From Bacteroidia bacterium (GTDB lineage Bacteria > Bacteroidota > Bacteroidia > NS11-12g > UBA955): a stretch of DNA of 64,000 bases. Location: NCBI GenBank assembly GCA_030158725.1, contig JAOASJ010000101.1, forward strand, positions 26,101 through 90,100, given 5' to 3'. The translations under genes and the position numbers were made by a program. A model generated the notes under the pieces. That model saw only the letters and a list, made by a program, of their open reading frames with translations. It searched no databases and was not told the origin of the DNA. Positions 8,429-35,134 of this stretch are shown here, piece by piece; the stretch's first letter is position 1, and each line of letters begins with the position of its first letter.

Positions 8429-8436
8429 TAAATTTG
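8429..8436 (+). promoter_or_regulatory. -7 box TAAATTTG, 10 nt upstream of the hydrolase ATG
   Basis: Exact TAnnTTTG match. Confidence 0.55.
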
Positions 8437-14194: not shown

Positions 14195-14202
14195 TATTTT
14201 TG
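14195..14202 (+). promoter_or_regulatory. -7 box TATTTTTG, 13 nt upstream of the PKD-protein ATG
   Basis: Exact TAnnTTTG match. Confidence 0.55.
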
Positions 14203-27532: not shown

Positions 27533-27606
27533 GGAATTGACAGTCCAACTTATTCCATAACTTATTCACTACAAATATAAGTTAAAGATCACTTATTTTT
27601 GCAATA

Positions 27607-30498
27607 TTGAAACATCTTTTCTTATTTTATAGTTTGTGCTTTATAGCATTGAATTCTTGGGGTTTAACTGTCGAGAAGCAGGCAAGTTGGCAGCAAAAAA
27701 CGAGAATGAACATTGAAGCTTTATTAGACCCTGAAAATAAAGAGCTAAAAGCACATGTAGTCCTCCAGTATGAGAACAATTCTCCTGACACTTTGAATTA
27801 TATTGTTTTTAATGTTTGGGGCAATGCGTTTAGAGATCAAAATACTGCTTACGCAAAGCAATTATTAAGTCATGGAGAAGATGAGTTCTATTTTAGCCAA
27901 AAAAACGAAAAAGGCTATATGGATTCACTTAAATTCTTTGAGAAAGGGGTGATTTTAAAATGTAAAATAGATAGCCTGAACCCAGATATTCTGTATGTTT
28001 TTTTAAATCAGGCCTTGCTTCCAAATCAATCGATAAGCATAGTTTATTCCTACAATTATAAAATCCCTAAGCTATTATCAAGAGGAGGTTATAGCAAAGA
28101 TATCTTGGCCTTAACCCAATGGTATCCAAAGCCTGCAGTATATGATGTCAACAAATGGAATCCAATGCCTTATTTGGAGCAGGGTGAGTTTTATAGTGAG
28201 TATTGTGAAAATATTTCTGTTACTATTAAACTACCTAGAGAATATGTAATGGCTGCTACAGGTAATTTAACAAATAATAAAAATTCTTTAGGTAAAAATG
28301 GCCAAAGTTTGAAGGAGTTAACCTACACAGAAAATAATATTCATGATTTTGCTTTTTTTGCCAGTAAAAATTTTAATTTGATGAGCCAAAAAGTCAAATT
28401 GAAAAATGGAGACTCGGTAATGATAGAGTTGTATACAACAGATTCTTTTCCAAATGAAAAGAAATATGCTAAGAATAGTAATGTATTATCTTATATTGAA
28501 TTTGCTCTAAATTCTTACAATTCAATAGGTCGATACGCATATAAAACTTGTAAAGTTGTAATAGGTCCTCAAAATGCAGGAGAAGGTATGGAATACCCTA
28601 CAATTACAATCTGTAAAGACAATACAGCAGAAACAATATTTCATGAGGTAGGCCATAATTGGTTTTATGGAATGATTGGAAATAATGAAAGAGCGCATCC
28701 TTGGATGGATGAGAGTTTAAATACATACTTTAGTACCAAATTTGTTTATCAATTTGACGATAAAAATTCTCAAGATGTAATTATTGACAAGCAATTTTTC
28801 CAAAAACAGAGAAGTTCTGATTATGCCTTAAAACACAGTATGTTATTAAGTTATCAATTAACAGAAGTACAAGGAGTTAGGCAAGCAATTACATTGCCAT
28901 CTGATCAATTAAACAGTTATAATTATGGCATATTGTTGTATGCTAAAGGGCCACTTTTGTTTGCGTACCTAAACCAGTTTTTAGGTGATAGTATATTTAT
29001 GGCCTGTAACAACTATTATTTTGAAAAGTGGAAATTTAAACACCCTTTACCTAATGATATGAAAGCTTGTTTTGAAGCTGTATCTGGTCAAAATTTAGAT
29101 TGGTTTTTCAATGAATTACTAATAACAGACAAGCCAATTGATGTTGTTTATAAGCATGGCAATTATTTCATAAAAGGACTGCCATTGTTGGATTCTATAT
29201 GGTCAAATAAACGAACTATAAATCCTAATCCTTATGGCTTTTTGACTGAAAGTAACTTCAGTAATAATGGACAAAAGAAAACTTTGTTGTCTTTAAGAAT
29301 TCCAATTGGATTGCCCTCTTATCATGCCTTGATCAGTATGGATTTAATGCCAATTTTAGGGTATAATTACTACGATAAACTATATGCAGGATTTGTATTT
29401 AACCATCATTTTTTAAATGTAAAAAAGCTTCAATTTATAGCCATGCCTTCTTGGTCATTTACTCAGAAAAAGTTAATTGGATATACAAGGATTTCTAGTA
29501 GTATTTATAATAGCAATAATCGTTTATCTAGTATTGTTTTAGGGGTTCAAGGACAAACTTTTTCCTTGTCAATGGCGTCTCAAATAAATCAATATTATAG
29601 AATTAATCCTTTTATAAAATTTAATTTGATGTCTAAAAATATTAGTAAACAATTGGAAGAAAAATATATAATTTTAAATTTCATTAATACTGGAATAAAT
29701 CAAAAAACTTATCATGATACTAAGGACAGTATTGTTCAATTTCCAACATATTTGAATTGGAATTATTTAAAAGCATCGTATGTATATGATAACCATCATC
29801 CAATAAATAGAATTGGGTTTAAATGGAATTCTGAATACGGCTACAATTATGTGACAGGAAATGATAATTCTCAATACGCTAAAACATGGATAAACCTGGT
29901 TTATAAATACAAGTATGACAAAGGCAGAAAGTACTTCAGATCGGAGTTCTTTGGTGGTGTATTTTTGAAAAAGACAAGTGGGTTGGATGTAAGGATGTTT
30001 AGCGTTGCTAATAATGGCAATAATGATTATTTGTTTCAAGAAGCGTTACTTGGTCGCTCAGAGATTAGCACTGGCAATATCCTTTTAAGTAATCAATTAA
30101 TTTCAGGTGGAGGAAATATGAGAAATTTAATTCCGGTATCTTCAAGTGATAGATGGATGTTGGCTTTGAATAATGATGTTAATTTACCAGGTATTATTCC
30201 TTTGAAAATTTATCTAGACTTGGCCTATTTTGGTTATACCAATATAGTTAACCAAAATCAAATATTAACTAAACCAGATTTGTATTATACGGCTGGTTTG
30301 TCTTTAGAGTTATTTCACAATACCTTAGAAATCTTTGTTCCATTGGTTTATTCAAAACAATTTAAAGGGTATAGCAATTGGAATTATAATACGTTTAATT
30401 CTATTGGATTTAAATTGAACCTGAATCAGTTGGAGCCTACTAGATTAATCAGCAATTTAGTATTAGAGAATAAATTTAAAATTCAAGACAGCTTATAA
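27607..30498 (+). CDS. M1-family (gluzincin) metallopeptidase with large beta-rich C-terminal half
   Basis: 963 aa with a signal peptide and the gluzincin motif HEVGHNWFYG...WMDESLNTY (HExxH-X18-E). The C-terminal ~450 aa are Y/N/G-rich with an alternating hydrophobic pattern. The start is TTG. Confidence 0.8.
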   Translation: MKHLFLFYSLCFIALNSWGLTVEKQASWQQKTRMNIEALLDPENKELKAHVVLQYENNSPDTLNYIVFNVWGNAFRDQNTAYAKQLLSHGEDEFYFSQKNEKGYMDSLKFFEKGVILKCKIDSLNPDILYVFLNQALLPNQSISIVYSYNYKIPKLLSRGGYSKDILALTQWYPKPAVYDVNKWNPMPYLEQGEFYSEYCENISVTIKLPREYVMAATGNLTNNKNSLGKNGQSLKELTYTENNIHDFAFFASKNFNLMSQKVKLKNGDSVMIELYTTDSFPNEKKYAKNSNVLSYIEFALNSYNSIGRYAYKTCKVVIGPQNAGEGMEYPTITICKDNTAETIFHEVGHNWFYGMIGNNERAHPWMDESLNTYFSTKFVYQFDDKNSQDVIIDKQFFQKQRSSDYALKHSMLLSYQLTEVQGVRQAITLPSDQLNSYNYGILLYAKGPLLFAYLNQFLGDSIFMACNNYYFEKWKFKHPLPNDMKACFEAVSGQNLDWFFNELLITDKPIDVVYKHGNYFIKGLPLLDSIWSNKRTINPNPYGFLTESNFSNNGQKKTLLSLRIPIGLPSYHALISMDLMPILGYNYYDKLYAGFVFNHHFLNVKKLQFIAMPSWSFTQKKLIGYTRISSSIYNSNNRLSSIVLGVQGQTFSLSMASQINQYYRINPFIKFNLMSKNISKQLEEKYIILNFINTGINQKTYHDTKDSIVQFPTYLNWNYLKASYVYDNHHPINRIGFKWNSEYGYNYVTGNDNSQYAKTWINLVYKYKYDKGRKYFRSEFFGGVFLKKTSGLDVRMFSVANNGNNDYLFQEALLGRSEISTGNILLSNQLISGGGNMRNLIPVSSSDRWMLALNNDVNLPGIIPLKIYLDLAYFGYTNIVNQNQILTKPDLYYTAGLSLELFHNTLEIFVPLVYSKQFKGYSNWNYNTFNSIGFKLNLNQLEPTRLISNLVLENKFKIQDSL

Positions 30499-30510
30499 TT
30501 TATTGAATAA

Positions 30511-30542
30511 AAAAAACCGTCAGCAATTAGCGGACGGTTTTT
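30511..30542. terminator. bidirectional hairpin terminator between the M1 peptidase gene and the H1-like gene
   Basis: Stem AAAACCGTC / GACGGTTTT, flanked by an A-run and a T-run. It lies between the stops at 30498 (+) and 30565 (-). Confidence 0.8.
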
Positions 30543-30564
30543 CAGAGAGGTTAAAAGTAATATT

Positions 30565-30918
30565 TTACTTTTTAGCTGATTTTTTAGCTTTAGCTTTAGG
30601 AGCAGCTTTTTTAGCTTTAGCTTTAGGAGCAGCTTTAGCCTTTGGAGCAGCTTTTGCTTTAGCTTTAGGAGCAGCTTTAGCTTTTGGAGCAGCTTTCGCT
30701 TTAGCTTTAGGAGCAGCTTTAGCTTTTGGAGCAGCTTTCGCTTTAGCCTTAGGAGCAGCTTTAGCCTTTGGAGCAGCTTTTGCTTTAGCTTTAGGAGCAG
30801 CTTTAGCCTTTGGAGCAGCTTTAGCTTTAGCTTTTGGAGCAGCTTTAGCTTTTGCTTTCGCTTTCGGTGCTGCTTTTGTAGCTTTTGCTTTTGCAGCTGG
30901 TTTTTTTGATGTTGCCAT
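30565..30918 (-). CDS. histone H1-tail-like Lys/Ala/Pro repeat protein (putative nucleoid-associated protein)
   Basis: 117 aa: MATSKKPAAKAKATKAAPKAKAKAK then alternating AAPKAKAK and AAPKAK units, ending KKSAKK. It has an ATG start, lies 26 nt downstream of the SET gene on the same strand, and is followed by a hairpin terminator. The composition is like the eukaryotic H1 C-terminal domain, chlamydial Hc1/Hc2 and AlgP. Confidence 0.75.
   Translation of the reverse strand: MATSKKPAAKAKATKAAPKAKAKAKAAPKAKAKAAPKAKAAPKAKAKAAPKAKAAPKAKAKAAPKAKAAPKAKAKAAPKAKAAPKAKAKAAPKAKAAPKAKAKKAAPKAKAKKSAKK
30590..30850. repeat. 42-bp in-frame tandem repeat array (about 5 regular units plus degenerate flanks) inside the H1-like gene
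   Basis: TAGGAGCAGC recurs at 30624, 30666, 30708, 30750 and 30792, spaced exactly 42 bp apart. Each unit encodes KAKAKAAPKAKAAP on the minus strand. Confidence 0.9.
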
Positions 30919-30944
30919 ATTTATAAATATTAAATTGGGTTTTT

Positions 30945-31328
30945 TTATTTGTTTAGATCTGAGTGCATATCACCATAATCTATGGTAATTTCTTCACCTG
31001 CTTTTATCGTTTTTAATGCCTTATAGATCATTACTCCGTCTTTTATTTTTTTTATGTAATCTGCATTCGGTTTTGCTGAATGGTTGTATAAAGATCCAAA
31101 TCCTAAAACGATTGCGACATTTTTTTTACTTGTATTCCAAACGAATGTATAGTTTTCTAAAATGTGCCCAACCAAAGTCTGATGTTCCTTATAACTCAAC
31201 TCGATTACAGGGCAAATTTCAATAAGATCACCTTTCTTTAAAACTTTAGATGTAAACACACCGCGACCCTTGTGTCCTGCATTAGATACAAATAAATTTG
31301 TATTACTTATGTTATACTCCTTTTTCAC
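30945..31328 (-). CDS. SET domain protein-lysine methyltransferase
   Basis: 127 aa with a GTG start. SET signatures are GHKGRGVFTS, LYNHSAKPNA (NHSCxPN-like) and AGEEITIDYG (GEELxxDY-like). A -7 box lies 18 nt upstream. Confidence 0.85.
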   Translation of the reverse strand: MKKEYNISNTNLFVSNAGHKGRGVFTSKVLKKGDLIEICPVIELSYKEHQTLVGHILENYTFVWNTSKKNVAIVLGFGSLYNHSAKPNADYIKKIKDGVMIYKALKTIKAGEEITIDYGDMHSDLNK

Positions 31329-31346
31329 TCAATTAATTTAATGCGT

Positions 31347-31354
31347 CAAAAATA
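31347..31354 (-). promoter_or_regulatory. -7 box TATTTTTG, 18 nt upstream of the SET gene start
   Basis: Exact TAnnTTTG match. There is no second box between the SET gene and the H1-like gene. Confidence 0.55.
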
Positions 31355-31527: not shown

Positions 31528-32043
31528 CTAAAAACTATTTATTACGTTTTTTATCATAACGAAATCATTCATTAGATATGATTCTCCAATATCAAAATCT
31601 TCTACAGATTCAATAGTGAAACCGTTTTTAAAATAGAAGTTTATTGCTTTGAAATTTTGACGATTTACTGTTAATTTTAATTTGTAATTATGGATATTAT
31701 ATAAACCATTTATCACATTAATTATTTCATGCATGACATTGCTGCCAAGGTTCTGTCTGTGCTGCTCTGGAAGAATATAGAATTTATGAATAAAGTATGT
31801 GCTAATGTCTTGTTGACTCAATGAAACGAATCCTAGAAATTCAGATTGATTTTTAATAAAATAAAAGTCTTGACCATTTTTAATTTGCAATTTTAATGCA
31901 TCATTTGAATAGAACTTGTTCAACATATATTCAATCTGATTGATGCTTATAATTTCTATGTAATATTTTTTCCATATCAATTCAGCCATCTCTGCAATTT
32001 TAGATAGTTCTTCTTCTTTTGTCTTTATTATTTTGATTTCCAT
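31528..32043 (-). CDS. GNAT family N-acetyltransferase
   Basis: 171 aa with an acetyl-CoA binding-like segment (ILPEQHRQNLGSNVMHEI) and a C-terminal INFYFKNGF motif. Confidence 0.8.
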   Translation of the reverse strand: MEIKIIKTKEEELSKIAEMAELIWKKYYIEIISINQIEYMLNKFYSNDALKLQIKNGQDFYFIKNQSEFLGFVSLSQQDISTYFIHKFYILPEQHRQNLGSNVMHEIINVINGLYNIHNYKLKLTVNRQNFKAINFYFKNGFTIESVEDFDIGESYLMNDFVMIKNVINSF

Positions 32044-32064: not shown

Positions 32065-32072
32065 CAAATATA
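32065..32072 (-). promoter_or_regulatory. -7 box TATATTTG, 21 nt upstream of the GNAT ATG at 32043
   Basis: Exact TAnnTTTG match. Confidence 0.55.
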
Positions 32073-32122: not shown

Positions 32123-32130
32123 TATTTTTG
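32123..32130 (+). promoter_or_regulatory. -7 box TATTTTTG, 27 nt upstream of the GNAT ATG at 32158
   Basis: Exact TAnnTTTG match. Confidence 0.55.
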
Positions 32131-32157
32131 AATCAAAATTATAATACAATTAAATCG

Positions 32158-32604
32158 ATGAGCAAAGTTGAGTGCAAACTAATAGAATTCGGATCTGAGG
32201 AATATAAACATAGTATAGAGTTAAGAAGGAAGGTTTTACGTAAACCTCTAGGCTTGGACTTTACACCTAACGATCTAAATGCAGAGCATGATCAGTTTCA
32301 TTTTGCTATTTTTGATAATGGAATTTTAATTGGTATTTTGTTGCTAAAGACAATGAAAGATATTAGCCCAAGTATTTTAAAAATGCGCCAAGTGGCTATA
32401 GATCCTGAGTATCAAAGTAAAGGTTTCGGAAGTATACTTGTTAGATTCTCAGAACAATGGGCAATTGAAAGTGGATTTAATTTGATTGAGTTAAATGCTC
32501 GAAATACTGCTGTTCAGTTTTATAAGAATTTAGATTATAAAGAAATCGGCAATGAATTTTTAGAAGTGAATATACCACACATTAAAATGATTAAAAATTT
32601 CTGA
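32158..32604 (+). CDS. GNAT family N-acetyltransferase
   Basis: Motif A is RQVAIDPEYQSKGFGSILV, with a downstream AVQFYKNLDY. I prefer the ATG at 32158 because the track's TTG at 32128 lies inside the -7 box TATTTTTG (32123..32130). Confidence 0.85.
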   Translation: MSKVECKLIEFGSEEYKHSIELRRKVLRKPLGLDFTPNDLNAEHDQFHFAIFDNGILIGILLLKTMKDISPSILKMRQVAIDPEYQSKGFGSILVRFSEQWAIESGFNLIELNARNTAVQFYKNLDYKEIGNEFLEVNIPHIKMIKNF

Positions 32605-32657
32605 TTTTAGTACATATGTAGTACGATAAAATTAAGTTTTTTTTGCAATTTCGTAAA

Positions 32658-35066
32658 ATGAAATATGCATTAGTTATATTAAGTATTATTTTTTCATTTG
32701 AGTTACTTGCTCAGGAAAATGCTATAGACTATATCATTCCTCAAGTTAATAACCACAAAGTATTATATCTTTCTAGTTCTGACGTTTTAGAAGGTGACAT
32801 TACAACCATTCAAACAGAATTTCAATCTCAGGAATTCAAGTACTTCTCAGAATTTAATGCTGATGGTTCGACATTATATAAATTTGTGCATTATGAAGGT
32901 TCTTTATTTTCAACAGAACAATATGCATATTTTTTAAAGTTTAATGGTAATTCTGCTCAATTATTTGGATATAGTGACTATAAATTAAAGAACAATTTAT
33001 TTTTTGATGATGTTGTTAATGAGGATTATAGTGCATTAAATAATCAAACCATTTACAAAGTTCCAAACGAAAGTTATCAAAGTCAAAATTGGTCTTTTCA
33101 AGATCCTAATACTCAAAAGCAGGTCAATGGAAGCTCTTATTATAAGACAATGAATATTGGTGATTATGAAAGAAAAATTCTTGTAGTTGAATTTACTTCT
33201 GGTTCAAAAACTAGAAAAGAATATTATTTGAAGTACTACGGATTAATTGCCATTCAAGAACCTGATAGAAAATTTTATATAAATGATTTTGATAATTTTA
33301 GTTTATACACCAAATCATTTTTAGATGATAAGGGTGAATATAAAACTAGGACTTATGCATGGGACTTAATAGAACATTTTAGAGATGTAAACATAGGTGA
33401 TTCTTTTTTTAATCTCGATGGTAAAAATAAACGAGTTTTTGAAAAATCTAAAGACTCAATTTTAGGTTTATTTGAACACATGATGCTTCGCAATCCTGAA
33501 TTACAGAACCCTTATAAGTACATGTTAAGTATAGTGCTATATTCAGGTTCTTTAAGAATTTTTGATGAAGCTGAATCTCAAAAAGTCACTGCTTATCAAT
33601 ATGAAACCATTATAGATGAATTGTATCATTATTATTTTATTAGACCATATCCAGATGCTATTTCACAATATAATTTAAGCACCTATGTTACCAATATTTC
33701 CGAATCATTCTACCAGAATTTTTGGAAGATGGATTATTGTTTTCTGAAGACCTTACCACTAAAGAATTCATTTGAACGTTCATACAAAGCATACTTGTGT
33801 AAGCCTAGGGTAGAAAGTATCTTGAAATTTGAATCCAATATTGATAATGTAAACAAATGTATACTCTTTGCGTATGTTTCTGATTATTATAAATTGCTAG
33901 AAGATGAAGGCAATGAATATTTTTATTTAGTAAAATCAGTCGAATACTATAAGTATTTATCTACAGCGGATAAGGACTTGAACATTGATTATATGCGAGC
34001 AGTAATGAGAGATTTGGCGGAATTGAAACCTAAGGATGAAGATGTGCTTAATAGAGCCATTGCTGCAACTAATGATTTAAAAGATTATTCAAATTCTGTT
34101 AGGATTGCAGAAAATGGAATCAGCCATAAACTTGGCATAGGAATTAATTTTGCTTTGCTTTATGCAGAGGCTGCATTTCAAGACGATTTAAATAAACCAT
34201 CTTTAAGAAAGGCAATGGATATTTTGTCGCCAAATTTGAATCTATTGTCTCTAGCACAATTAAATGACTATCTTAAGTTTTGTCGAGCACTTGGGTCTGA
34301 ATATGATTGCAAAAAGGCAGAATCTCTTTTATCAAAAGCAAAGAAAAAGGAACAAAGCGAAGCGAGAAAAAATTCAAATGGAAGTAATAAATCATATGGA
34401 AGTAATAATCGATCTGTTAATTTAGCACTTTTATTTAATCCATTTGCCGGAGCCAATATAACTGGTAATGGAGGTTTCCTTAAATTTCTTCCAATGTCTG
34501 CTGAATTAAGAACTGGTAAAATAGTTCATGAATTCCGTTACAATATGTTTTTTGGTGGTGACTTTAAAAATAGGTTTGTAGGTGGAAAGTTAGATAATGA
34601 GGCCGATGTCAACAATAAATGGAAAAATTTACATGGAGCCGATTACAGCTATGGAATTATTTTTGTCAAAAATGACAAAGGGTATAATGGCCAAGAATGC
34701 ACCAGTGGTGGAGGCGGACTTCAATTTTTATATGGCGCGTTTCAGTCAGACAAAGAAACAACAAATGTGACTATTAATGGAGCATATGGAACAATTAATG
34801 TGACCCCTAATATCAAAAGATACGAAGCAATCTTAAATTTTAAATACATCTATTTTGATTGGAAGTCGCATTTTTCTGCAACAATGTTCTATGGGTTCGG
34901 ATTAGGAATGAGAGAAATAACGTATAACAATAGTGTTTTTAGCGAAAGCACTTTAAAAGATAAAGATAAGACTGTTTTTGAGGACCAACGTTTCACTCAA
35001 AAGAATTGGGAAGGTGCCTACTTCACCTTAAGGTTAGGATTTAGAATAGGATTTACTATTTTTTAG
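32658..35066 (+). CDS. hypothetical secreted/outer-membrane protein (helical N-terminal part, beta-barrel-like C-terminus)
   Basis: The ATG at 32658 gives a signal peptide (MKYALVILSIIFSFELLAQ). The C-terminal ~220 aa are G/Y/N-rich with an alternating pattern and end in ...LRLGFRIGFTIF, an OMP-type terminal Phe. I recognise no family. Confidence 0.6.
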   Translation: MKYALVILSIIFSFELLAQENAIDYIIPQVNNHKVLYLSSSDVLEGDITTIQTEFQSQEFKYFSEFNADGSTLYKFVHYEGSLFSTEQYAYFLKFNGNSAQLFGYSDYKLKNNLFFDDVVNEDYSALNNQTIYKVPNESYQSQNWSFQDPNTQKQVNGSSYYKTMNIGDYERKILVVEFTSGSKTRKEYYLKYYGLIAIQEPDRKFYINDFDNFSLYTKSFLDDKGEYKTRTYAWDLIEHFRDVNIGDSFFNLDGKNKRVFEKSKDSILGLFEHMMLRNPELQNPYKYMLSIVLYSGSLRIFDEAESQKVTAYQYETIIDELYHYYFIRPYPDAISQYNLSTYVTNISESFYQNFWKMDYCFLKTLPLKNSFERSYKAYLCKPRVESILKFESNIDNVNKCILFAYVSDYYKLLEDEGNEYFYLVKSVEYYKYLSTADKDLNIDYMRAVMRDLAELKPKDEDVLNRAIAATNDLKDYSNSVRIAENGISHKLGIGINFALLYAEAAFQDDLNKPSLRKAMDILSPNLNLLSLAQLNDYLKFCRALGSEYDCKKAESLLSKAKKKEQSEARKNSNGSNKSYGSNNRSVNLALLFNPFAGANITGNGGFLKFLPMSAELRTGKIVHEFRYNMFFGGDFKNRFVGGKLDNEADVNNKWKNLHGADYSYGIIFVKNDKGYNGQECTSGGGGLQFLYGAFQSDKETTNVTINGAYGTINVTPNIKRYEAILNFKYIYFDWKSHFSATMFYGFGLGMREITYNNSVFSESTLKDKDKTVFEDQRFTQKNWEGAYFTLRLGFRIGFTIF

Positions 35067-35126: not shown

Positions 35127-35134
35127 TAAATTTG
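35127..35134 (+). promoter_or_regulatory. -7 box TAAATTTG, 25 nt upstream of the M16 peptidase ATG
   Basis: Exact TAnnTTTG match. Confidence 0.55.

Follow-up and report, generated by a model that had tools for sequence, protein, structure and literature searches.

A conserved two-gene unit joining a minimal SET-domain protein to a lysine-, alanine- and proline-repeat protein in low-GC freshwater Bacteroidota, a candidate writer-substrate pair

On the minus strand of the window, the whole 64,000-nt stretch of DNA analysed here, a gene for a putative SET-domain lysine methyltransferase is followed at a short distance by a gene whose product consists almost entirely of lysine, alanine and proline (hereafter KAP), and the pair lies between a promoter-type box and a hairpin terminator (Table 1). 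A preliminary description of this DNA had reported the GTG-start ORF with three SET signatures, the nearly pure K/A/P ORF of 117 aa downstream of it, the same-strand gap free of a TAnnTTTG box and the one -7 box ahead of the pair, and all of these are present where it placed them.

Table 1. Features of the SET-KAP locus, with positions counted from the first nucleotide of the window.
Feature	Position	Strand	Description
Minimal SET-domain lysine methyltransferase gene (putative activity)	30945..31328	-	GTG start, 127 aa, Pfam PF00856
Lys/Ala/Pro-repeat (KAP) protein gene	30565..30918	-	ORF, 117 aa; conserved orthologues with conserved start and end
Tandem 42-nt (14-codon) repeat array in the KAP gene	30586..30854	-	TRF: period 42, 6.3 copies, 93% match
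-7 promoter box TATTTTTG, Bacteroidota-type TAnnTTTG	31347..31354	-	18 nt ahead of the SET start codon
SET-KAP spacer	30919..30944	-	26 nt, without -7 box and without terminator
Hairpin terminator with flanking A-run and T-run	30511..30543	.	RNA fold; common to the convergent M1-peptidase gene ending at 30498

The assignment of the 127-aa protein to the SET family, which the preliminary description had based on motifs, is borne out by the profile search it proposed: Pfam SET (PF00856) matches over profile positions 1-105 of 105 with E=2.3e-16 and 60.5 bits, against a curated cutoff of 22.4 bits. The three signatures read G21RGVF25, N82HSAKPN88 and G111EEITIDYG119; the SAM-binding GxG, the NH(S/C)xxPN motif and the catalytic tyrosine of an ELxxDY-like motif (E112EITIDY118) are all present, and residues R22, G23, V24, F25, Y81, N82, H83, N88, E113 and Y118 are unchanged across 34 homologues. 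Profile matches to structures in the PDB were best for Set7 of S. pombe (5h6z, 1.4e-26) and vSET of PBCV-1 (1n3j, 1e-23), with 4rz0 also matched. An AF2 model (pLDDT 89.6, pTM 0.81) has the SET beta-fold, superposing in Foldseek on Set7 (5h6z) with a TM-score of 0.82 and an rmsd of 2.0, and on vSET (3kma) with 0.74 when normalised by the query and 0.89 when normalised by the target. The protein is basic (pI 9.2), has a single cysteine and falls in the range of ~120-130 aa of SET proteins that consist of the core only, without Cys-rich pre-SET or post-SET regions; its nearest relatives are likewise minimal SETs, and homologues from Methanosarcina are 45-50% identical to it. It is a bona fide minimal SET domain which, judging by its motifs, is apparently catalytically intact.

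KAP has the composition A54 K44 P14 S2 T2 M1, such that K, A and P together account for all but five of the 117 residues (112) and lysine alone makes up 38% (44 residues), with a pI of 11.6. It opens with MATSKKPAAKAKATK..., continues as (AAPKAKAK/AAPKAK)n and closes with ...KKSAKK; five in-register repeat units encode an identical AAPKAKAKAAPKAK, their differences being confined to codon position 3. The orthologues, 79-129 aa in length, all open with a conserved MAT(T)KK and turn lysine-rich at their end, directly before the terminator, and codon differences in their N-terminal 25 codons are 17 synonymous vs 4 non-synonymous. KAP therefore has the low-complexity, basic, Lys/Ala/Pro-dominated character of bacterial H1-like proteins of the Hc1/Hc2 and AlgP type. 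Profile-detectable homology to Hc1, Hc2 or AlgP was not found, and searches of Pfam (including Hc1/HC2) and NCBIfam gave no match at E<=1, an absence that is uninformative for a sequence of such biased composition. A phmmer search of 5.8 billion proteins likewise retained only three matches after composition-bias correction, namely two extensions of ribosomal L21 and a protein of 79 aa for which Pfam gives no annotation; owing to this correction phmmer is unsuited to the family, which was surveyed by a DNA-pattern scan instead. The same K/A/P repeat also occurs as tails on ribosomal proteins S2, L21 and L30, topoisomerase I, Obg and MarR, a distribution that fits with polyanion binding.

The layout of the locus is that of an operon, with both genes on one strand, a short spacer, a promoter upstream, a terminator downstream and neither in between, and this layout is kept in nine aligned loci. 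Since a scan for sigma-70 promoters and simple terminators is unsuited to Bacteroidota promoters and overlooked the hairpin because of its bulged stem, we relied on RNA folding and on the positional conservation of TAnnTTTG. The TATTTTTG box is the sole minus-strand TAnnTTTG between 30565 and 31354; a single occurrence is not significant by itself because 126 such boxes are present in the window where 114 would be expected, which is no significant enrichment. In eight of nine diverged loci, however, a box is kept at a distance of 22-28 nt ahead of the SET start. The spacers measure 24-49 nt in the nine loci, all of which carry CCAATTT 13-17 nt ahead of the KAP ATG (at 30932..30938 in the window); none has a TAnnTTTG in the spacer or in the final 150 nt of SET, and the simple scan gave no terminator in the spacer of the window. 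Downstream of KAP the hairpin folds at -16.7 kcal/mol (z = -7.15; 0 of 200 shuffles equally stable), in agreement with the terminator of the preliminary description, and the A-run and T-run on its flanks make the bidirectional action proposed there plausible. A hairpin with a T-run, of differing stem sequence, follows KAP in all eight loci retaining downstream sequence, L007 being left out of this count as its sequence ends 10 nt past KAP. These features support a conserved unit of promoter, SET, spacer, KAP and terminator, which is probably read as a single mRNA.

Among relatives, KAP lies directly after SET in 25/25 loci with a SET identity of at least 64%, comprising seven genome loci, the loci L082-L089 and L215, and nine metagenome loci; each of L082-L089 and L215 has SET followed by KAP, as do 7/7 of the genome loci with downstream sequence. 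Such a recurrence argues that the pairing of the two ORFs is not due to chance. Conversely, when standalone MAT(T)KK K/A/P genes were sought in metagenomes by the DNA pattern of the repeat alone, SET was found directly upstream in 9/9, and the linkage is thus strict in both directions inside the clade. Beyond it the association ends: KAP is lacking at the nearest SETs outside the clade, the phage-encoded L081 (56% identity) and L213 (55%), and at all of the more distant SETs (0/72 loci). For at least one further standalone gene of K/A/P type (L105), moreover, the surrounding 3.7 kb contain no SET. The survey of SET neighbourhoods envisaged in the preliminary description consequently upholds the joining of a writer gene and a lysine-rich partner in one operon, with conserved architecture and linkage, but as a trait of one low-GC freshwater clade and not of Bacteroidota SET genes in general. 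A convergent M1-peptidase gene lies downstream in all KAP-linked loci, while the upstream neighbours vary, being a GNAT pair in some and PMT_2-like/LMWPc genes in others. The idea that the GNATs form an acetyl-writer cluster with the pair was rejected, as they are generic, fall below all NCBIfam cutoffs and occur in only a subset of loci.

A sister SET clade (Algoriphagus and others) has a different small partner, ‘PIG…KIGPK’, in 8/8 loci, and this tight design of SET and partner persists in varied gene contexts; a split with a bootstrap value of 100% unites the KAP-linked and sister clades. Because the sister clade has its own obligatory small downstream partner, the combination of SET with a dedicated small partner is a property of the subfamily; because that partner is not H1-like, chromatin need not be the common theme.

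We suggest, with a probability of about 0.5, that the pair is a two-gene operon of low-GC freshwater Bacteroidota (Chitinophagales-like) in which SET methylates KAP, a protein that coats polyanions. From one promoter to one terminator, the 127-aa SET and then the 117-aa polycation of AAPKAK(AK) units, predicted to be intrinsically disordered, would be expressed together; the 44 lysines of KAP would enable it to coat nucleoid DNA, or possibly RNA or some other polyanion, in the manner of the C-terminal tail of H1, and the co-expressed SET, with S-adenosylmethionine, would mono-, di- or tri-methylate these lysines. Such methylation would keep the charge and could tune binding strength, condensation or protease resistance, effects of the kind that methyl-lysines are reported to have in the K/A/P repeats of mycobacterial HBHA and HupB. 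The genes, their arrangement and their strict linkage are matters of observation; that KAP is a DNA-binding or chromatin protein we infer, and the transfer of methyl groups to it, the most conjectural step of all, is suggested by the linkage (25/25; 9/9 in the reciprocal direction) and by analogy with known systems.

Several such systems invite comparison. The best profile and structure matches, PBCV-1 vSET (1n3j/3kma) and S. pombe Set7 (5h6z), have the same size as the SET protein described here and likewise no Cys-rich pre-SET or post-SET regions; their substrates are histone H3 K27 and K37, and neither has a linked substrate gene. The two prokaryotic precedents cited in the preliminary description are as it gave them (PMC3980110; PMC10117894). 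In Chlamydia pneumoniae, cpnSET is reported to bind Hc1 and to methylate it in vitro (Murata et al. 2007, via PMC3980110, PMC10117894), a combination (with Hc1/Hc2) of a bacterial SET enzyme and a lysine-rich, H1-like bacterial protein as seen here. The chlamydial SET and Hc genes, however, are not described as an operon in either of these sources, Hc1 belongs to an established family (Pfam Hc1/HC2) instead of being a pure K/A/P repeat, with KAP giving no profile match to that family, and cpnSET is larger and also discussed as a secreted effector, whereas the lineage of the window belongs to free-living Bacteroidota. Go1-SET of Methanosarcina mazei methylates the chromatin protein MC1-alpha (Manzur & Zhou 2005, via PMC3980110), and thus shares an endogenous prokaryotic chromatin protein as substrate as well as membership of the ~125-aa minimal SET family, the comparison being one by description and the 45-50% identity being that of Methanosarcina homologues; MC1 differs in being folded and methylated at one lysine, and no K/A/P or small basic ORF was found beside SET in the Methanosarcina loci examined. 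Ala/Pro/Lys repeat tails that bind polyanions and the nucleoid are known from the mycobacterial proteins HBHA and HupB/LBP, where heavy lysine methylation is a feature: the repeats of HBHA bear 20-26 methyl groups (PMC8467707), and methylation of the HBHA and HupB/LBP repeats reportedly makes them less prone to proteolysis (Pethe et al. 2002; PMC8467707; PMC10665949). There the repeat extends as a tail from a folded domain, the phylum is Actinomycetota, and neither PMC8467707 nor PMC10665949 describes a SET enzyme or a writer gene linked to the repeat protein. Pseudomonas AlgP, linked to the spacing of polyphosphate granules (PMC9239181), also has low-complexity Lys/Ala/Pro repeats like the H1 tail, but it possesses an N-terminal domain and no SET partner is described for it.

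That the K/A/P ORF is an untranslated tandem DNA repeat, or that the true gene is the antisense ORF 30503..30988 (+) with an Ala/Leu/Gly/Phe repeat, we consider hardly credible, although the antisense frame is open at every locus and shares its wobble positions with the KAP frame, gene callers took it in L083-L085, and an exact-sequence look-up of six KAP orthologues found none in a collection of 15 billion proteins. With the antisense frame open throughout and its wobble positions shared, variation at the third codon position carries less weight as evidence for the KAP frame; such openness arises automatically, on the other hand, from GCN, AAR and CCN codons. The argument for coding rests on the conserved ATG and non-repetitive N-terminus MAT(T)KKPAAKAKATK, the conserved lysine-rich end and stop before the terminator, a promoter and terminator oriented for the KAP strand, and the in-frame translation of the identical repeat in bona fide proteins elsewhere, while the antisense ORF would have to begin in the terminator and run into the 3' end of SET; the ORF thus behaves as a real gene. 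It is also unlikely that the adjacency merely reflects gene order inherited in one lineage without functional coupling. Inherited synteny does contribute to the linkage signal, given that the positive loci form a single SET clade, all keeping the convergent M1-peptidase neighbour, and that distant SETs are without KAP. Within the same genome pairs, however, SET is 68-93% identical as against 37-71% for the M1 peptidase and 45-72% for GNAT, and even where flanking proteins have diverged to ~37-43% identity and upstream genes have been replaced, the spacing of the pair, its promoter box and its terminator persist; the sister clade, moreover, repeats the tight design in varied contexts.

A stronger contender, possible if still on the improbable side, accepts co-transcription and denies the writer-substrate relation: KAP would be a polycation of the nucleoid, the ribosome or polyphosphate and SET would act on another protein (ribosomal, HU, EF-Tu-like), or KAP would tether or activate SET on the nucleoid. 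KAP-type tails on many unrelated nucleic-acid-binding proteins with no SET nearby are consistent with this, as are the reported organisation of polyphosphate granules by the H1-like AlgP (PMC9239181), the basic nature of SET itself and the different kind of protein serving as partner in the sister clade. Methylation of KAP is favoured instead by the strict reciprocal linkage, the standalone MAT(T)KK-KAP family being seen only beside SET, by the fact that a 38%-lysine protein is the most obvious lysine-methyltransferase substrate at hand, and by precedent, SETs that act on H1-like or chromatin proteins being already known. Among the bacterial SETs that have been characterised, the majority are nucleomodulins directed at the host (PMC3980110, PMC10117894), and the solved structures nearest to this SET are those of histone H3 methyltransferases; SET could therefore be an effector against eukaryotic histones, for instance those of protist grazers or of hosts, like the SET effectors of Chlamydia, Legionella, Burkholderia and Bacillus anthracis, with KAP as an accessory (such as a chaperone or mimic). 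We regard this as very unlikely, because the lineages behind the loci are free-living ones known from freshwater and marine metagenomes, the SET gene sits among housekeeping-type neighbours with no secretion genes seen beside it, no N-terminal hydrophobic signal was seen in its 127-aa product, and a dedicated intracellular polycation next door would be unexpected for an effector. A reading as an anti-phage defence system is without support, since neither SET nor KAP nor the Algoriphagus partner matched any PADLOC model; scanning the window for Rfam families and tRNAs also gave nothing.

A full-text literature search found no published description of a SET/K/A/P operon, and the author of the preliminary description was likewise aware of none in Bacteroidota; the pair is probably a new form of the prokaryotic pairing of SET with chromatin proteins. 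The bacterial SET enzymes characterised so far are nearly always regarded as effectors against host histones, and the deliberate modification of their own chromatin proteins by bacteria is still ‘under discussion’ (PMC10117894). In free-living bacteria, a SET enzyme encoded next to an H1-tail-like protein with 38% lysine is a candidate for an endogenous writer-substrate pair that lends itself to direct testing, and it bears on the origin of H1-type tails as well as of SET writers. More tentatively, and at somewhat less than even odds, both clades could represent a Bacteroidota-specific minimal-SET subfamily hard-wired to small, disordered, lysine-bearing partners (the KAP branch and the ‘PIG...KIGPK’ branch), an endogenous writer-substrate system that marks a nucleoid protein. 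If true, this would be the first ‘histone-tail plus SET’ module known to be genetically encoded by bacteria that live free, and a model for the pairing of a lysine-rich tail with a SET writer before, or in parallel with, eukaryotic chromatin. The sister-clade partner opens a route to genetics, since Algoriphagus species are represented by named strains. KAP-type genes are prone to being mis-called in antisense or to be absent from protein databases, which renders modules of the SET-KAP type invisible to protein-based surveys. A phage, for its part, has apparently captured the SET writer alone.

The minus strand at 30565..31354 reads exactly as the preliminary description had it in ORFs, motifs and spacer: a SET-domain lysine methyltransferase gene (SET) precedes one for a Lys/Ala/Pro-repeat protein (KAP), the backbone of which is a 42-nt unit in 6.3 copies (93% match). 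When the SET alignment was run against GTDB genomes, one for each species, 595 loci were confirmed; the survey used the best 80 of them. The pairing, which the preliminary description proposed to count across SET neighbourhoods, recurred within a close clade: among the eight closest of the best 80 loci (SET 68-92% identical, GC 29-36%; MAGs labelled Bacteroidia, Bacteroidota or Chitinophagaceae), a K/A/P ORF directly follows SET in 7/7 with downstream sequence, the eighth contig stopping at SET, and likewise in the close-clade loci reached via the protein collection (L082-L089 and L215). It did not recur in the remaining 72 of the best 80 (SET at most 50% identical; Algoriphagus, Saprospiraceae, Patescibacteria, Methanosarcina and others), where no K/A/P ORF lies nearby, nor is one linked to the intermediate SETs of loci L081 (56% identity) and L213 (55%).

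Coordinates of features in the window and in comparison loci (L handles)
Feature	Position	Strand	Details
SET ORF	30945..31328	-	GTG start, 127 aa; motifs GRGVF, NHSAKPN, GEEITIDYG
SET-KAP spacer	26 nt	-	between both ORFs
CCAATTT	30932..30938	-	in spacer
KAP ORF	30565..30918	-	117 aa; A54 K44 P14 S2 T2 M1; pI 11.6
TAnnTTTG box TATTTTTG	31347..31354	-	sole TAnnTTTG on minus strand over whole SET-KAP unit
Hairpin terminator	30511..30543		between KAP and M1-peptidase gene; fold -16.7 kcal/mol, z = -7.15
M1-peptidase-like gene	ends 30498		convergent to SET-KAP pair; 963 aa
Antisense ORF, rejected	30503..30988	+	Ala/Leu/Gly/Phe repeat, opposite KAP
GNAT acetyltransferase genes	31528..32043; 32128..32604	-; +	divergent pair just upstream of operon
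807-aa ORF	32643..35066	+	no NCBIfam match; ~42-45% identity in L002, L003, L006
TAnnTTTG near ORF starts	27594-27601; 32065-32072; 35127-35134; 14195-14202; 8429-8436		examples
PIG/KIGPK partner	L009 and L010 4371-4643; L011 4372-4665; L214 2916-3182; L216-L218 2501-2800; L219 747-1004		directly after SET
Acidic-basic family	L094 4278-4973		87 others among L093-L212
Phage-like block	L081 141-3485		small same-strand genes, SET among them

Nine diverged loci were compared in architecture (the window, L001-4, L007, L008, L082 and L086). A TAnnTTTG box lies 22-28 nt ahead of the SET start in eight of the nine, and the spacers between SET and KAP (24-49 nt) hold neither such a box nor a terminator. 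All nine spacers contain CCAATTT at a distance of 13-17 nt from the KAP ATG, in deeply diverged genomes; it may act in translation initiation, in RNA processing or as a regulatory site inside the operon. A hairpin with a T-run follows KAP in the 8/8 loci retaining downstream sequence (the L007 contig stops 10 nt past KAP), its stem sequence varying among lineages.

Such linkage could be pure synteny: the convergent M1-peptidase gene is retained in all positive loci, and vertical inheritance therefore adds to the linkage signal. However, the genomes are deeply diverged, the peptidases of L002, L003, L004 and L008 being 37-42% identical to that of the window and their SETs 68-84%, and upstream neighbours have been exchanged, with the GNAT pair in the window and, among comparison loci, only in L001-3 and L006, and a PMT_2-like gene in L007, L008, L082-L089 and L215 (with LMWPc in L082-L089 and YkuD in L215). 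The SET-KAP pair, its spacing and its signals outlasted both, and synteny on its own is an unlikely explanation. Nor is it credible, beyond a very slight chance, that the K/A/P ORF goes untranslated. Taken for a gene in the preliminary description, it holds up as one, with start and end conserved across relatives: each related locus has an orthologue (79-129 aa) after SET, always with the N-terminus MAT(T)KK(P/T)A..KAKATK and a C-terminal lysine run just ahead of the hairpin terminator. Codon differences among four relatives in the non-repetitive 25-codon start number 17 synonymous and 4 non-synonymous, the latter all one same S/T change; the peptide is the same in five in-register repeat units, whose codons vary at third positions only, with the caveat that the antisense frame is open in all loci and has the same wobble positions.

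The antisense ORF as the true gene was rejected on four grounds: its start sits inside the terminator and its end enters the SET 3' end; promoter and terminator signals belong to the KAP strand; the N-terminus and stop of KAP are conserved; and bona fide proteins elsewhere contain the identical repeat, read in frame. Gene callers sometimes chose the antisense frame, as in L083-L085, where the called genes are on the opposite strand, and the exact KAP sequences were not found in a collection of 15 billion proteins; protein-based surveys would therefore miss the operon.

For a reciprocal test, DNA able to encode APKAKAKAAPKAKA was sought in contigs from metagenomes and viruses; at least 123 loci matched. 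Among the matches listed, at least 10 are standalone MAT(T)KK K/A/P genes, with SET immediately upstream in 9/9 whose contigs extend 150 bp or more in that direction, and this standalone family was found only beside SET. In the remaining listed loci (at least 113) the repeat lies inside other proteins, with no SET on the locus. At least 88 listed loci form a marine family (several contigs are labelled marine metagenome) that begins MKVIKKTKEYVVYQKGSGRYAVK... and carries a long acidic (EEAP)n block and then a basic (KAKAAP)n block in one chain; L094, the single member tested, had no Pfam match. In diverse metagenome contigs the APKAKAKAAPKAKA repeat is an N- or C-terminal extension of other proteins, and looks like a portable polyanion-binding tail. 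Since it is found on ribosomal proteins (S2 in L111 and L129, L21 in L172, L30-like in L108 and L203), topoisomerase I (L157), Obg (L169) and MarR (L103), the repeat is a widespread, putative polyanion-binding module. A different standalone K/A/P-like gene, in L105, lacks a SET in the 3.7 kb ahead of it.

The enzyme assignment was borne out by the profile search, the 127-aa protein aligning to Pfam SET along the whole profile (E=2.3e-16, 60.5 bits, cutoff 22.4). The best PDB matches of a 34-homologue profile were S. pombe Set7 (5h6z, 1.4e-26) and chlorella-virus vSET (1n3j, 1e-23), and the confident AlphaFold2 model (pLDDT 89.6) superposes on Set7 with a TM of 0.82. Residues of SAM binding and catalysis (GRGVF, Y81-N82-H83, N88, E113, Y118) are invariant in the family alignment; the protein has one cysteine and is free of Zn-cluster modules. 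On this profile, predicted-fold and invariant-residue evidence it belongs with the minimal SETs vSET, Set7 and Go1-SET. The protein collection holds ~970 homologues. The Methanosarcina homologues compared are 45-50% identical to the window SET; within this genus, the M. mazei enzyme is reported to methylate the chromatin protein MC1-alpha (PMC3980110).

Another partner is found in a sister clade, where a conserved 85-99-aa protein directly follows SET in 8/8 loci (three Algoriphagus species, L214 and L216-L219), the two genes overlapping or lying up to 12 nt apart, amid varying flanks. It has invariant PIGxxVP and KIGPK motifs, falls into just 16 clusters in 5.8 billion proteins, and matches nothing in Pfam or PADLOC. 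A neighbour-joining tree was built from 46 SETs; rough and partial in sampling, it gives the KAP-linked and PIG-linked clades 100% bootstrap each, and 100% also to their union, L081 included, against all sampled partner-less SETs. Because both partnered clades, jointly supported at 100%, carry small downstream genes, a dedicated downstream partner appears to be a trait of this Bacteroidota subfamily, judging from sequence, which raises the prior for functional coupling, e.g., of writer and substrate.

The observed gene identities, architecture and linkage suggest a mechanism. By established SET chemistry, SET would carry out SAM-dependent methylation of lysine epsilon-amines; KAP, from its composition and the proteins sharing its tail, would bind nucleic acid or another polyanion; and its lysines could be the SET substrate, given the linkage and the analogy with cpnSET-Hc1, Go1-SET-MC1-alpha and HBHA, whose K/A/P repeats bear 20-26 methyl groups (PMC8467707). 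To this full chain we assign a probability of about 0.5. The main rival, that the genes are co-expressed but SET is aimed at some other target or KAP serves as a tether, is a possible if doubtful reading, and SET as a host-directed effector is highly improbable. Each element is already known: SET enzymes, H1-like K/A/P proteins in bacteria, and prokaryotic chromatin proteins that a SET enzyme methylates; in full-text searches and the reviews consulted we found neither a conserved operon of minimal SET and pure K/A/P polycation in free-living Bacteroidota nor the broader pattern of partner-linked SETs. With KAP as the putative substrate of SET, the operon offers a direct test of whether bacteria carry chromatin marks of their own, which is an open question.

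Outside the KAP clade, the nearest SET is that of L081; it adjoins DpdA/queuine-tRNA-ribosyltransferase-like and QueE-like radical-SAM genes (PHROG matches), and the locus may represent a phage that took up the SET writer. In the window, the first GNAT has a weak likeness, far under cutoff, to PaiA (spermidine/spermine acetyltransferase), and the start of the 807-aa ORF resembles a signal peptide by eye. TAnnTTTG has no overall enrichment in the window; many ORF starts have one a few to ~30 nt upstream, a placement that would fit Bacteroidota-type promoters whose leaders are very short.
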